Source of the DNA: Coleofasciculus chthonoplastes F2-STO-03
GTDB lineage: Bacteria > Cyanobacteriota > Cyanobacteriia > Cyanobacteriales > Coleofasciculaceae
Reading direction: 5' to 3'
Assembly: GCA_040222015.1 (NCBI GenBank)
Contig: JAVJWO010000075.1
Span: forward strand, 1 to 13,356
DNA length: 13,356 nucleotides
The translations under genes and the position numbers were made by a program. The notes under the pieces are model-generated. The model made no database searches. It was given only the letters and a program-made list of their open reading frames with translations, and was not told where the DNA came from. Numbering within the stretch: position 1 is the stretch's first letter; every line of letters starts with the position of its first letter. This document shows, piece after piece, positions 227-13,356 of the stretch.

Positions 227-1081
227 CTATCTCCCCTCGCGGCGAAAGAGGTGGGAGTGTTCTGGATGATAGAGGCGGGAACGTGTCGCTGTCTTATTAT
301 CTTGGCTCGATATTTTCTCTGGTAAAGACCAAGGTGTTCTCAAGGCGGGGCTAATTATATAAAGTGTTGTCCGAATTAGATTTTCCTGGTGAGTTAGTGC
401 TGCCATTTCTTCTAATGGGACAAGCCACATTTTCTCATCAGACCAACTAATCCGGAAACAGACAGCAACCGGGGTATTTGCTGGATAATGTTGCATCAGT
501 TTGGCTTGGGCGGCGTCTACATGACGAGCGCTCAGATAAAGACAAAGACTGGCTTGATGGGCGGCTAGAGACGCTAATTCTTCCGACTCAGGTACGGCTG
601 AGGCTCGACCACTAATGCGCGTCAGGATAATGGTTTGTACCACGTCCGGCACAGTGAGTTCAACCCCTAGTTTAGCTGCTGCCGCTTGGTAAGCACTAAT
701 GCCAGGAATCACTTCAAAGGGAATTTCTGCCTCGGTAAGGGCTTGCATTTGCTCGTGAATGGCGCTGTATAGACTCAGATCACCCGAATGCAGACGAACT
801 ACAGATTTTTGCGATCGCACTCGTTCAATCATCAGGGGTAAGATGTCTTCTAGGGTTTTATTCCCAGTTCGGATAATTTCTGCATCAGGACGGGTTTCCT
901 GCAAAATTTGTGATGGCACTAAGGAGTCGGCAAATAAAATAACATCTGCTTTTTGCAGGATTTTCAACGCTTTAACGGTTAATAACTCCGGATCTCCAGG
1001 TCCAGCACCAATAATGTAGACGGCTGGGGCTAGAGAAGGGAGAGAGCTTTGAAGTTGAGTAGAGTCAGAACTTTGATACAT
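227..1081 (-). CDS. cobM: Precorrin-4 C11-methyltransferase (cobalamin biosynthesis)
   Basis: Motifs VYIIGAGPGDPELLTVKA, VRLHSGDLSLYSAIHEQ, ELTVPDVVQTIILTR and C-terminal SRLYHPEHSHLFR. Start placed at ATG 1081 (MYQSS), because the ORF-track extension to 1135 runs into the non-coding 104-bp repeat. Confidence 0.93.
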   Translation of the reverse strand: MYQSSDSTQLQSSLPSLAPAVYIIGAGPGDPELLTVKALKILQKADVILFADSLVPSQILQETRPDAEIIRTGNKTLEDILPLMIERVRSQKSVVRLHSGDLSLYSAIHEQMQALTEAEIPFEVIPGISAYQAAAAKLGVELTVPDVVQTIILTRISGRASAVPESEELASLAAHQASLCLYLSARHVDAAQAKLMQHYPANTPVAVCFRISWSDEKMWLVPLEEMAALTHQENLIRTTLYIISPALRTPWSLPEKISSQDNKTATRSRLYHPEHSHLFRREGR

Positions 1082-1088
1082 ATAAATT

Positions 1089-1094
1089 TCCGGA
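1089..1094 (+). promoter_or_regulatory. DIF1-like TCCGGA motif at about -35 of sRNA copy 1 (also at 1193-1198 and 1297-1302)
   Basis: TCCGGA lies at -36..-31 relative to GGTAGATGCACC in all three units. This is the position of the DIF1 motif in HetR-dependent promoters such as those of nsiR1. Confidence 0.65.
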
Positions 1095-1124
1095 TCAGGT
1101 TCATAGGGATAGGAAGAAAGAAAT

Positions 1125-1176
1125 GGTAGATGCACCCTGATTTAGTCCTAGAGATTTTTTCTCTGGGGCTTTTGTT
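1125..1176 (+). ncRNA. NsiR1-like small RNA, copy 1 (about 50-58 nt)
   Basis: The 5' sequence GGTAGATGCACCCTG matches my recollection of the NsiR1 5' end. It is followed by a terminator hairpin and U-tract and preceded by TCCGGA at -35. Confidence 0.68.
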
Positions 1177-1182
1177 ATTTTT
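1144..1182 (+). terminator. Intrinsic terminator of the sRNA unit (repeated at +104 and +208)
   Basis: AGTCCTAGAGA-TTTTT-TCTCTGGGGCT forms an 11-bp stem with two G-U pairs, which work only for a + strand RNA, followed by TTTGTTATTTTT. Confidence 0.75.
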
Positions 1183-1228
1183 AGACGACTTTTCCGGATT
1201 AGGTTCATAGGGATAGGAAGAAAGAAAT

Positions 1229-1280
1229 GGTAGATGCACCCTGGTTCAGTCCTAGAGATTTTTTCTCTGGGGCTTTTGTT
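1229..1280 (+). ncRNA. NsiR1-like small RNA, copy 2
   Basis: Same architecture: TCCGGA at 1193-1198, GGTAGATGCACCCTG from 1229, terminator hairpin plus U-tract. Confidence 0.68.
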
Positions 1281-1332
1281 ATTTTTAGACGACTTTTCCG
1301 GATCAGGTTCATAGGGATAAGAAGAAAGAAAT

Positions 1333-1384
1333 GGTAGATGCACCCTGGTTCAGTCCTAGAGATTTTTTCTCTGGGGCTTTTGTT
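1333..1384 (+). ncRNA. NsiR1-like small RNA, copy 3
   Basis: Same architecture: TCCGGA at 1297-1302, GGTAGATGCACCCTG from 1333. Repeat homology ends just after the terminator U-tract (1387). Confidence 0.68.
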
Positions 1385-1487
1385 ATTGCCTACCTCACGG
1401 TATCTTGGAGTTTGTGAAGAGTGCGGCACATCTCAGTTTAAACTTGTAGATGGTATTCTAGCGTTAAATTGACACCAATGAACCTTG

Positions 1488-1608: not shown

Positions 1609-2487
1609 CTACTCAGATACTGTATCCCATTGCTGATTTTCCGGTGGTACAACATCCGGGAGAGGACGACGGAACCAGTAGAGCCATGCTAAACCTGCCA
1701 ATCCCAAGAGAATTGACACTAAACTGACAATTTGAGCAATGCGTAAAGGTCCTACCATCAGGCTATCCGTTCGTAATCCTTCAATCCAAATTCGACCTGC
1801 ACTATAACCCACCAGATAAATTAGCGCCAATGTACCAACTTTCAGGTGCGGTTTTCGTTTCAAATCCCGAAAGAATAAGGTTATCAGTACCGCAAAAATC
1901 AATAAATTCCACAGCGACTCATAAAGAAACGTGGGATGGAAATATTGATAATTTATGTACGCTGGAGGGCGATGTTGGGGCGGAATATACAGTTTCCACG
2001 GTAAATTTGTGGGACTGCCAAAGGCTTCTGAATTAAAGAAATTACCCCAACGTCCAATAGCTTGCCCCAAAATCAGCGAAGGAACAACCAAATCAGCTAA
2101 TAACCAAACCGATAGTTTCTGAATCCGGGCAAAAATGATTGTGGCGACAAGTCCACCCAAAATAGCACCGTGAATCGCGATACCCCCTTTCCAAATCGCA
2201 ATAATATCTTCCGGGCGTTGGGCGTATTGTTGCCATTGAAACAAGACATAGTAAAGTCTGGCACAGGGAATTGCCCCAATCACCAACCAGATTGCCAAAT
2301 CTGCGATCGCGTTTGGATCAACGTTACGGCGCTTGGCTAAATATTGGGATAAACTGACTCCAATTAATACGGCTGAAGCAATTAATAAACCGTACCACCG
2401 GATAGTCAGTGGTCCTAGCTTCACCAGAATCGGTCCTGGAGAGGCAAATTGAAACGCCAGGATCAGGGAAGGTATGGCTTGCAGCAT
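1609..2487 (-). CDS. lgt: Prolipoprotein diacylglyceryl transferase
   Basis: Motifs [42 protein letters not shown] and HPTFLYES. Start placed at ATG 2487 (MLQAIP). Confidence 0.95.
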
Positions 2488-3204: not shown

Positions 3205-3232
3205 TCAATCAATCAATCAATCAATCAATCAA
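3205..3232. repeat. (TCAA)x7 microsatellite
   Basis: Seven perfect TCAA units followed by a degenerate TTAA, between kaiB and DUF427. Confidence 0.95.
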
Positions 3233-3268
3233 TTAATCGACTCCTGGTGTTAAAAATCTGTTTATTGA

Positions 3269-3622
3269 TCAAATACTCAAGCAAATCTTAACCTTTTCCT
3301 TATCTGTCATATCCCCAATTAAACGCTGTAAAGGAGGAGGAAGTTCTTTGATCAGAGTTGGTACAGCAAAAATTTGCTCTTTTTCTAAACGTTCTGGATT
3401 CTCGTAAATGTCGATTATTTCTAGTTCATAACGCCCTTTCAGGTGTTCTTCACAGATGCTTTTTATATTTTTAACAGCTTGAATTGACTTGAAGTTATTA
3501 TGGGCAATATACAAACGAAAAACGTAGGTTTCTACTTCCAAATTTTCAAGGGAATCGAAACTTAATTGAGAGTCTTCGAGGAACTCCGGCGAATTCTCCT
3601 GTTTTTTTTCAAAATCATTCAT
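3269..3622 (-). CDS. kaiB: KaiB-family (non-canonical paralog) circadian clock protein
   Basis: YVFRLYIA...ICEEHLKGRYELEIIDIYENP...EQIFAVPTLIKELPPPLQRLIGDM. GGGAGG lies upstream of the ATG. Confidence 0.88.
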   Translation of the reverse strand: MNDFEKKQENSPEFLEDSQLSFDSLENLEVETYVFRLYIAHNNFKSIQAVKNIKSICEEHLKGRYELEIIDIYENPERLEKEQIFAVPTLIKELPPPLQRLIGDMTDKEKVKICLSI

Positions 3623-3767
3623 TACGATTCTGTTTTGCCTCCCTATACCTATGATAGTAATCTAGTCATTGTACCGTGACTTCCTCGAAAACTGCTCCGC
3701 TACAGTATTCACTATTTTTTATTACGCATTACATATTACTATATTGTTTATTATTCTCACGTCTCCT

Positions 3768-4097
3768 CTAGGGAATCAGAATGTGCGTTTTAAAGAAATC
3801 AACCAGACGCATCATAAAGGATTTGATTTGCATGTAGTTACCAATATCCGTCAAATTCGATATCGGGTCGATGATAACCACGGTGGGTTTAAATTCATTA
3901 ATAAAACGATAAATTTTGACTAAATGCATCTCTAACCCATAAAAAGTGGGACGCATCGCTTGAATTTTCAACAAACCCTTGTGTACGGATGGTTCTAAAT
4001 CGATGCCAATTGATCGCATATTGCGGATGATCTGGCTAGCCGATTCCTCGAAGGCAAAGTAGAGACATCGTTCTCCCCGCAAGCAAGTCGCATTAGC
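3768..4097 (-). pseudogene. kaiC: Internal fragment of a KaiC2-type CII domain
   Basis: ANATCLRGERCLYFAFEESASQIIRNMRSIGIDL...RPTFYGLEMHL...VVIIDPISNL. An in-frame TAG lies at 4110-4112. There is no CI domain, no CII Walker A and no phosphosite region, and the similarity ends at DFFKT. Confidence 0.85.
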
Positions 4098-11502: not shown

Positions 11503-11566
11503 ATTCTCAATAAACAGGAATCTAGGCAAAAACTATTCTCAATAAACAGGAATCTAGGCAAAAACT
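11503..11566. repeat. Perfect 32-bp tandem duplication in a divergent promoter region
   Basis: ATTCTCAATAAACAGGAATCTAGGCAAAAACT at 11503-11534 and 11535-11566. Confidence 0.95.
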
Positions 11567-12540: not shown

Positions 12541-12559
12541 GCCAATGTTGTGTTAGATA

Positions 12560-13356
12560 TTACCAATACCCGACAGGGGGCGACCCGGTAACATTAAGGG
12601 TTGGGTGATGTTAATTGAATGAGGCGGTTCACCCCTACGAGAACACCAAAGGTTTCGGGCTTAGCGTCGTGATTGTCAGGATGATTGGGATTATCACAGT
12701 TGTAGGGGCGAGTCGCTGCATCAATTTTCGGTGTGAGAATTAACCTATATCGACTCGCCCTTTTCTCAATTCGGTGTCAGATTATCGATACCCGACAGGG
12801 GGCGACCCGATACCATTAAGGGTTGGGTGGTGTTAATTGAATCCGGCTATTGCCCCTACCATTGTTGTTGTGTACCCGGTGTTAGATAATTCCCCATACC
12901 TGACGGCGGGCGACCCGATAAAATTAAAGGTTAGGTGGTGTTAATTGAATGCGGCGGGTCGCCCCTACCATTGTTTTTATGGATGCGATGTCCGATAATT
13001 CCCCATACCTGACGGAGGGCGACCCGATAAAATTAAAGGTTGGGTGATGTTGATTGAATGCGGCAGGTCGCCCCTACCATTGTTTTTATGGATGTGATGT
13101 CCGATAATTCCCCATACCTGACGGAGGGCGACCCGATAAAATTAAAGGTTAGGTGGTGTTAATTGAATCCGGCGGGTCGCCCCTACCAGGGTTTCAATGT
13201 ATCTGATTCCTGATTCTTCCCCATATCTTATACCGGGCAACCCAATAAAATAAAGGTTGGGTAATGTTAATTGAATGAGGCTATTCGCCCCTACGAAAAC
13301 ACCAAAGGTTTCGGGCTTAGCGTCGTGATTGTCAGGATAATTGGGATAATTGGGAT
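12560..13356. repeat. Array of long-loop GTAG-REP units (BIME/REPIN-like), truncated by the window edge
   Basis: About 60-bp cores GGGCGACCCG-N37-CGGGTCGCCC-CTAC at 12578, 12800, 12908, 13017, 13126 and 13235 (period 108-109 for the last five), plus an inverted variant at 12702-12760. Confidence 0.9.

Follow-up and report, generated by a model that had tools for sequence, protein, structure and literature searches.

Tandem NsiR1-family small RNA genes with predicted sigma-HetZ promoters between lgt and cobM of a Coleofasciculus-like cyanobacterium

NsiR1 is a small regulatory RNA and a known early marker of heterocyst formation. In Anabaena 7120 it is encoded by 12 tandem copies upstream of hetF (PMC9045159 and PMC4030482, each in part), and it has been treated as a hetF-linked array of heterocyst formers (PMC6596454 and PMC4030482, in part). 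The action described in Nostoc is base pairing, by which two targets are blocked: the overlapping hetF leader in the case of NsiR1.1 and, in trans, alr3234 in that of NsiR1.4 (PMC9045159, in part). The occurrence of NsiR1 outside heterocyst formers is already known in outline. Table S3 of PMC4734099, from 2016 and available in part, gives homologues in 38 of 89 genomes, 27 of the 38 being heterocystous, which means that an initial annotation of the DNA described below had overrated its novelty; and RNA162 of Limnospira indica is described as an NsiR1-like RNA (PMC8400943, in part).

The window, meaning the whole 13,356-nt stretch of DNA that was analysed, contains three tandem matches to the Rfam NsiR1 model RF02399 (Table 1). 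Tandem Repeats Finder delimits the array at 1087-1387, with a period of 104 bp, 2.9 copies and 97% matches, and the first 93 nt of the units differ at just 2-3 positions. Every unit has the order TCCGGA, 30 nt, NsiR1 5' segment, 11-bp stem and interrupted U-tract; the gap from TCCGGA (at 1089, 1193 and 1297) to GGTAGATGCACCCTG is exactly 30 nt each time. Unit 3 is 93 bp long, ends with its U-tract, and the repeat stops there. The initial annotation had read the array as three 104-bp units, each equal to one transcription unit and each homologous to NsiR1 in its 5' segment, and this reading is borne out: the copies cover model positions 1-60 and score above the gathering score of 39, and the 14 nt at the 5' end of the published 7120 RNA equal window positions 1126-1139, with the agreement extending further in copy 1.

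Table 1. Features of the array and its flanks in the window, with the other NsiR1-type genes of the host genome (G000)
Feature	Position	Strand	Basis or remark
cobM/cbiF, precorrin-4 C11-methyltransferase	227..1081	-	TIGR01465 323 bits, NCBIfam cut-off 260
Unit 1: promoter, sRNA gene, terminator, short spacer	1087..1190	+	
Unit 1 predicted -35 element TCCGGA (DIF1, sigma-HetZ)	1089..1094	+	Sequence; consensus of PMC13342950
Unit 1 predicted -10 element GGAA	1112..1115	+	17 nt past TCCGGA, 8 nt ahead of T1124
NsiR1 copy 1	1124..1177	+	RF02399 44.7 bits
Predicted intrinsic terminator, copy 1	1144..1182	+	11-bp stem, 5-nt loop, interrupted U-tract
Unit 2, GGUU variant	1191..1294	+	TCCGGA 1193-1198, -10 GGAA 1216-1219, terminator
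NsiR1 copy 2	1228-1281	+	RF02399 42.2 bits
Unit 3, GGUU variant	1295..1387	+	TCCGGA 1297-1302, -10 AGAA 1320-1323, terminator
NsiR1 copy 3	1332-1385	+	RF02399 42.2 bits
lgt, prolipoprotein diacylglyceryl transferase	1609..2487	-	TIGR00544 262 bits, cut-off 119; 3' end towards sRNA genes
hetF-linked nsiR1, single, TCCGGA-type	L001:1501-1560 = G000 C31:39921-39980		74.1 bits
Six palindrome-type seed genes with terminators	C85:282, C113:19831, C129:11494, C129:11355, C167:11220 (L005), C181:3840	-, -, -, -, -, +	

Because cobM and lgt both lie on the minus strand, the RNAs would be antisense to the spacer between them. The likely cobM ATG, as read from the sequence, is at 1081, leaving 7 bp to the first TCCGGA on the opposite strand. 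On the minus strand of 1082-1094 the palindromic TCCGGA also sets GGA 7 nt ahead of this ATG, and the TCCGGA of unit 1 may double as the cobM ribosome-binding site. Short minus-strand ORFs across the array were taken to arise from the repeat itself, and S15-leader and Spot 42 rows from the Rfam search of the window, being weak and under the cut-off, were dismissed. Elsewhere the window carries TCAA repeated 8.5 times (3205-3238), a 32-bp exact tandem duplication (11503-11566) and an array of 109-bp units (12559-13356; 4.7 copies at 85% matches), which contains GC-rich inverted repeats, extends to the contig end and has no Rfam match. A kaiB-like gene with a short kaiC fragment ahead of it (3269-4082; 104 aa against KaiC positions 300-397) is apparently a decayed kai paralogue.

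The predicted RNA has a 5' seed and a terminator. In copy 1 the seed occupies 1124-1139 (predicted 5' end at 1124-1126), and the stem pairs 1144-1154 with 1160-1170 (11 bp), the interrupted U-tract following. Against 200 shuffles, the folds of copies 1-3 have z scores of -3.6, -2.5 and -2.5. An alignment was made of 44 of the 104 lgt/cobM-linked copies found, hand-picked for spread at about one per locus. All 16 seed columns are invariant in it, and in the terminator stem both partners have changed in 9 of 10 pairs. For the structure as a whole, pairing holds in 94.9% of cells, compared with 87.2% in shuffles and no more than 60% in slid controls. Because the window copy supplied the structure and kinship is not accounted for in the shuffles, the comparison is supportive and does not amount to a probability. 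Just after the seed core, where copy 1 has GAUU, a GGU variant is present in 80 of 103 lgt/cobM-linked copies and in 0 of 31 hetF-linked ones. It occurs in 7 of 151 genomes, six of them from the host's order, within which it appears to mark the lgt-cobM locus.

The TCCGGA element had been taken as HetR-dependent. Its direct reader is the sigma factor HetZ, which acts downstream of HetR (PMC13342950). The window promoters read TCCGGA-N17-GGAA-N8-T in units 1 and 2, with AGAA as the -10 element in unit 3, and by sequence all three fit the sigma-HetZ consensus, whose -10 element is TGnA, the first position also accepting A and, in part, G (PMC13342950). This geometry predicts starts at about 1124-1126, 1228-1230 and 1332-1334; the published 7120 RNA begins at the base equivalent to 1126 (PMC4734099 Table S3, in part). 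The pattern TCCGGA-N16-17-nG[AT]A-N7-9-T fits 145 of 169 distinct TCCGGA-type copies versus 131 of the 3319 TCCGGA sites of the host genome, the final T coming partly from the seed and many of the 169 copies being close relatives.

The proposal of a non-heterocystous filamentous host has held up. The CobM sequence is 94-98% identical to that of seven Coleofasciculus assemblies and at most 82% identical to the other 73 loci (among the best 80 of 180), which indicates a Coleofasciculus-like host. Coleofasciculus is mat-forming and is not known to form heterocysts. In keeping with this, the pfaD/hglA-type gene (TIGR02814), present in 12 of 12 genomes of a second family (f7), is absent from the 99.99% complete host genome; the marker also occurs in some unrelated families, and hence just its absence is informative. 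With a non-heterocystous host genus and no pfaD/hglA-type gene in the host genome, heterocyst-specific expression is inapplicable as defined.

The genes that had been named as worth looking for, namely hetR, hetZ, hetF, patX and nif (as nifH), are all in the host genome. There hetR stands beside patX, hetZ scores above its cut-off and is accompanied by a hetZ-like paralogue, and there is one HetP-family gene; hetF was scored over its N-terminal part (398 aa against NF045509, E 1.7e-188). The patX gene (RGSGR) is directly upstream of hetR (L006:2380-2646 and 1207-2106, on G000 C85), and a one-mismatch sigma-HetZ-type site, TCCTGA, lies 58 nt ahead of it. No hetF-like ORF was found among the ORFs of the window or by profile search of it, as initially remarked, but this does not extend to the genome: hetF is on contig C31 with a canonical, divergent nsiR1 about 310 nt upstream. 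Since the host has hetF and its own canonical copy, the window array is a second locus and not a displaced one, and its copies are paralogues of the classical hetF-linked gene. Near the latter, L001:1928-3060 holds a NifU-N-like ORF that is truncated and, after it, an ORF with a leader resembling an IscB/HNH element of the IS200/IS605 type. Altogether the host genome has ten copies of the seed, four of them TCCGGA-type and six with a GGG-N5-CCC palindrome.

The lgt-cobM address is widely shared. Among the best 80 of 180 named cobM loci, lgt is the neighbour in 54, and 50 carry the 14-nt seed (at most one mismatch) upstream of cobM on the opposite strand, in 1-8 copies. By reading of the output, 36 of these 50 seed-bearing loci have an exact TCCGGA; the remainder have TCCTGA, TCCGGG, CCCGGA, CCCTGA or TTGCGGA. 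The 30 of the 80 without a seed include Moorena, Halothece, Pleurocapsales and Gloeocapsa types. Copy number is 8, 6, 4, at least 3, at least 3, 2 and 1 in Coleofasciculus loci and 5-7 in three further members of the host family, and there is one copy in Symploca, Caldora, Allocoleopsis, Oscillatoria, Laspinema, Phormidium, Kamptonema, Oculatella and others. An isolated TCCGGA-type copy in the same orientation also lies between lgt and cobM in all 10 genomes fetched of the 12 in f7. That family probably represents heterocyst-forming Nostocaceae, because at hetF it has a tandem repeat of 135 bp almost identical to the published RNA, and it also has the pfaD/hglA-type gene. The idea that the locus is special to non-heterocystous hosts is ruled out by these copies, and the different context that had been claimed for the array is real only in that it is not at hetF, for the lgt-cobM context itself is shared with Nostocaceae-type genomes. 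The site thus seems to be an old, conserved second NsiR1 locus and not an oddity of this host.

The TTGCGGA version is found at the cobM-linked copies of loci L093, L094, L101, L102 and L106 (named Aliterella, Chlorogloea, Tatlockia and Chroococcus), which suggests rewiring to another sigma factor. Among Aliterella/Chlorogloea-type genomes with a cobM-linked copy, hetR was found in 0 of 4 (genomes whose completeness is not shown) and hetZ in 0 of 3, arguing that the RNA can persist outside the circuit.

Published data for Anabaena 7120 bear directly on the orthologous site. There lgt and cobM are adjacent, and the cobM unit runs from 5603850, carries a leader of 161 nt and lacks a mapped start (PMC10287535, in part), a coordinate that identifies 7120 cobM as all4698. 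A HetZ ChIP peak at 5603520-5604643, assigned to all4698, is enriched 18.0-fold in the wild type and 1.7-fold in a hetZ mutant, and the known nsiR1 array is enriched 8.4-fold; all4698 mRNA does not change significantly in the hetZ mutant (all from the datasets of PMC13342950). A strong peak with unchanged cobM mRNA would be expected if a HetZ promoter drove an antisense small RNA. The 7120 transcription-unit table, in the part available, has NsiR1 copies at hetF and no forward-strand unit between cobM and lgt (PMC10287535), and the available part of the 2016 sRNA table has one seed-bearing row and none at the lgt-cobM coordinates (PMC4734099). It is nevertheless likely that 7120 has an nsiR1 copy between lgt and cobM, an overlooked sibling of the known ones.

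The six other seed copies of the host point to a second promoter class. The minimal HetR site is GGG-N5-CCC within a 17-bp inverted repeat of the hetP operator (PMC4192349, in part), and in the host a GGG-N5-CCC palindrome precedes the seed by about 35 nt, with a TATAAT-like -10 element in five of the six copies. The arrangement recurs in 134 of 301 genomes (0 with a reversed-pattern control), 133 of which have hetR. Its arms are imposed by the search pattern; the centre varies, and spacing is mostly 53 nt among the matches listed. Only 4 of the 12 f7 genomes contain the strict pattern. Of 30 palindrome loci fetched, 10 lie after gatB, 9 before ffh and 5 before argJ. Two genomes without hetR differ in what they retain: G040 (L198, contig C36) keeps the gatB-argJ sibling and its -10 element and has lost the palindrome, and G051 has kept it. 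The form GGGG-N5-CCC[CT] with -10 spacing occurs at 16 sites in the host genome, four of them ahead of a seed. By eye there is no exact GGG-N5-CCC upstream of host hetZ, and so there is no internal positive control; the HetR ChIP supplement of PMC4192349 has no gatB, argJ or nsiR entries.

Across the family, the seed and hetR go together. RF02399 matches were found in 34 of 41 relatives; all 24 from the host family are among them, each with between 4 and 24 matches. Of 301 genomes sampled evenly from the class, 163 have the exact seed 13-mer (12 single matches with a reversed control) and 143 have TCCGGA-type copies (control 0). All 155 genomes with hetR, 12 of them from f7, have at least two exact seed copies (median 5, maximum 16), and among the 146 without hetR, 138 have no copy, six have one, G047 has two and G051 four; these last two have a hetZ-like gene or hetZ. 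The genomes are kin, and the counts therefore reflect few independent events. The possibility that the single matches in hetR-less genomes are all chance is ruled out for G040, with its retained gatB-argJ sibling. The initial surmise that the module reaches beyond heterocyst formers is upheld by these counts. Beside hetF, the best Rfam match was found in 25 of 29 fetched loci, as a single copy in 24. Two Moorena genomes (L064 and L067; loci L209-L221 and L214-L220) have 27 and 46 seed 12-mer matches; a Moorena array consists of about 17 units of about 145 bp, and in the Moorena genome G337 the hetR match is in two pieces with a stop. Judged from these distributions, there are three old NsiR1 loci (hetF, lgt-cobM and gatB/argJ/ffh), with lineages differing in which one is amplified.

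The array is probably best explained as three self-contained NsiR1-family sRNA genes of about 55 nt, driven by sigma-HetZ, amplified for dose and acting in trans through the seed. HetR would switch on hetZ, as is known from Anabaena, and sigma-HetZ polymerase would then bind the TCCGGA-N17-nGWA promoter of each unit, in line with the sequence fit here and with the binding demonstrated at the orthologous 7120 interval. Each RNA would be ended by its own terminator, the structure of which is backed by covariation, and the single-stranded 5' seed would block translation of a target mRNA in trans. An invariant seed beside a freely varying terminator fits trans action of the kind described in Nostoc. 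The lgt-cobM site would be the old inherited address of a normally single copy, at which Coleofasciculus gains and loses whole transcription units by tandem duplication, raising the RNA dose to a presumed benefit, and the array gene would be one of three old loci in a HetR/HetZ/PatX circuit run without heterocysts. Provided that the hetF transcript extends as far as in 7120, its leader is a candidate target: window copy 2 and the host hetF upstream region form a duplex of -36.3 kcal/mol, with an 18-nt complement that exists by construction, because the region is the antisense of the hetF-linked copy. When the 5' 22 nt of copy 2 were compared with 5775 crude start regions of the host, this cis complement was the sole outlier, the other top rows resting on uncertain start codons, and pairing with the single HetP-family gene was no better than in shuffles (18-56% of shuffles as good). 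Ten public runs contain part of the stretch, all as assembled contigs of metatranscriptomes, and four were examined; in three, depth over cobM and lgt is flat as for DNA and higher over all repeats, which is uninformative on the sRNA, and in the fourth the stretch is barely covered.

Other readings of the array have to be weighed against this one. The RNAs could act in cis, as antisense RNA or by transcriptional interference on the lgt-to-cobM transcript, so that active sigma-HetZ would damp the synthesis of cobalamin or the maturation of lipoproteins. This is modelled on NsiR1.1 and the overlapping hetF leader, and it gains from the antisense orientation to the cobM leader in all 66 cobM-linked loci with a copy, from the distance of 106-155 nt to a fixed CobM codon in 44 of the 66, from the closeness of the first window TCCGGA to the cobM ATG and from the 161-nt leader of 7120 cobM, for which no start site is mapped. 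However, the distance reaches 614 nt in other loci, and where the two genes have separated the RNA has stayed with cobM in Symploca and Caldora and with lgt in L207 (a Moorena genome) and L039. No conserved sequence is required for pairing in cis, yet unrelated loci share an invariant seed, and the steady cobM mRNA of the 7120 hetZ mutant also speaks against a cis role, although an effect that is cell-specific or translational would go unseen in RNA from whole filaments. Action in cis on cobM is a possibility, weaker than trans action and, as the whole explanation, improbable. The seed might instead be a protein-binding motif through which the siblings titrate or guide an RNA-binding regulator by copy number and not by mRNA pairing. 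A segment of 13-16 nt that is exact across distant families and three promoter contexts would suit such a role, as would the wide variation in copy number (up to the 46 matches of one Moorena genome), the lack of a conserved mRNA target in the host start-region scan and the HetP-family comparison, and the enrichment of NsiR1 in PatR CLIP data (PMC11797042, in part). But PatR binds many sRNAs and terminators and so may be a chaperone, and regulation of hetF and alr3234 by base pairing has been demonstrated experimentally in Nostoc; this alternative is quite improbable.

A different kind of objection concerns the triplication, which could be neutral slippage in a repeat-rich genome, with one functional copy and no regulatory meaning. 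The scatter of copy numbers among Coleofasciculus loci, the single copy in most other genera and the further tandem arrays in the window would all be expected from slippage. Against this, the repeat equals one transcription unit in separate lineages with periods of 98, 101, 102 and 104 bp, the same is true of the repeats at hetF (135 bp) and in Moorena (~145 bp), and promoter, seed and stem are intact in all three window copies. Neutral triplication is rather unlikely, and it is in any case compatible with the preferred explanation as regards the single gene. Finally, the unit might be a DNA-level element, such as a protein site with a terminator or a small mobile repeat, and not an RNA gene at all, a reading that can point to the 7120 map (PMC10287535, in part), which has no unit at the site. 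The fixed order and strand polarity of promoter, seed and terminator, the covarying stem, the sigma-factor peak at the orthologous 7120 site (PMC13342950) and the homology to an RNA seen by northern blot make it very hard to credit.

The presence of NsiR1 at a shared site in a non-heterocystous host suggests that the circuit is older than heterocysts. A broader proposal, put forward tentatively and with somewhat more doubt than belief, is that NsiR1 is a core ancestral part of the HetR/sigma-HetZ/PatX circuit in essentially all HetR-bearing cyanobacteria, with one seed and two promoter classes forming a two-input layer of sibling sRNAs. If so, sigma-HetZ would serve the copies at hetF and lgt-cobM, those near gatB/argJ/ffh would have a housekeeping-type promoter with a HetR operator across its -35 region, and the two inputs together would mark a patterned cell state that is hidden in filaments lacking heterocysts. 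In 7120 one would then expect an nsiR1 sibling upstream of cobM, strongly bound by HetZ and untouched by studies of the 12-copy array, and this sibling, with the HetR-box class, would alter the reading of NsiR1 depletion and overexpression results. What hetR and patX do in filaments that lack heterocysts has been said to 'remain a mystery', and Leptolyngbya BL0902 has a predicted DIF1 promoter before patX-hetR (both PMC11298460, in part). A short, self-contained sigma-HetZ promoter of the earliest-heterocyst-marker type could serve as a single-cell reporter for hidden patterning, and a conserved RNA, as a downstream effector open to deletion, makes the role of HetR and HetZ outside heterocyst formers testable.

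In the NsiR1 literature no account was found of the locus between lgt and cobM, of the HetR-box class or of the correspondence with hetR; earlier papers or supplements may cover parts of this. The reports of the family in non-heterocystous filamentous cyanobacteria (the available parts of PMC4734099 Table S3 and PMC8400943) agree with the array in that respect, but give presence alone, without locus, copy number, promoter class or a link to hetR/hetZ. The predicted promoters resemble the sigma-HetZ promoters of hetR, patS, patX and nsiR1 (PMC13342950; PMC7377430, in part) in the TCCGGA -35 element, the 17-nt spacer, the nGWA -10 element and the T 8 nt further on, and differ in the first -10 base, which is T in the consensus and G or A in this non-heterocystous host. 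The hetP operator bound by HetR has the same arms and spacing as the six dispersed siblings of the host, candidate sites by sequence; this likeness concerns the siblings outside the window and not the array. The closest known system is NsiR1 of 7120 itself. It shares with the array the 5' seed, a length of about 55-60 nt, a DIF1 promoter and terminator for each copy, a repeat equal to one transcription unit and a placement antisense to a neighbouring gene's leader. In contrast to 7120, the array lies between lgt and cobM and not in tandem at hetF, has a different and shorter terminator, shows GGUU behind the seed core of copies 2 and 3, and belongs to a host without heterocysts that has one copy at hetF and six copies preceded by GGG-N5-CCC and not by TCCGGA.
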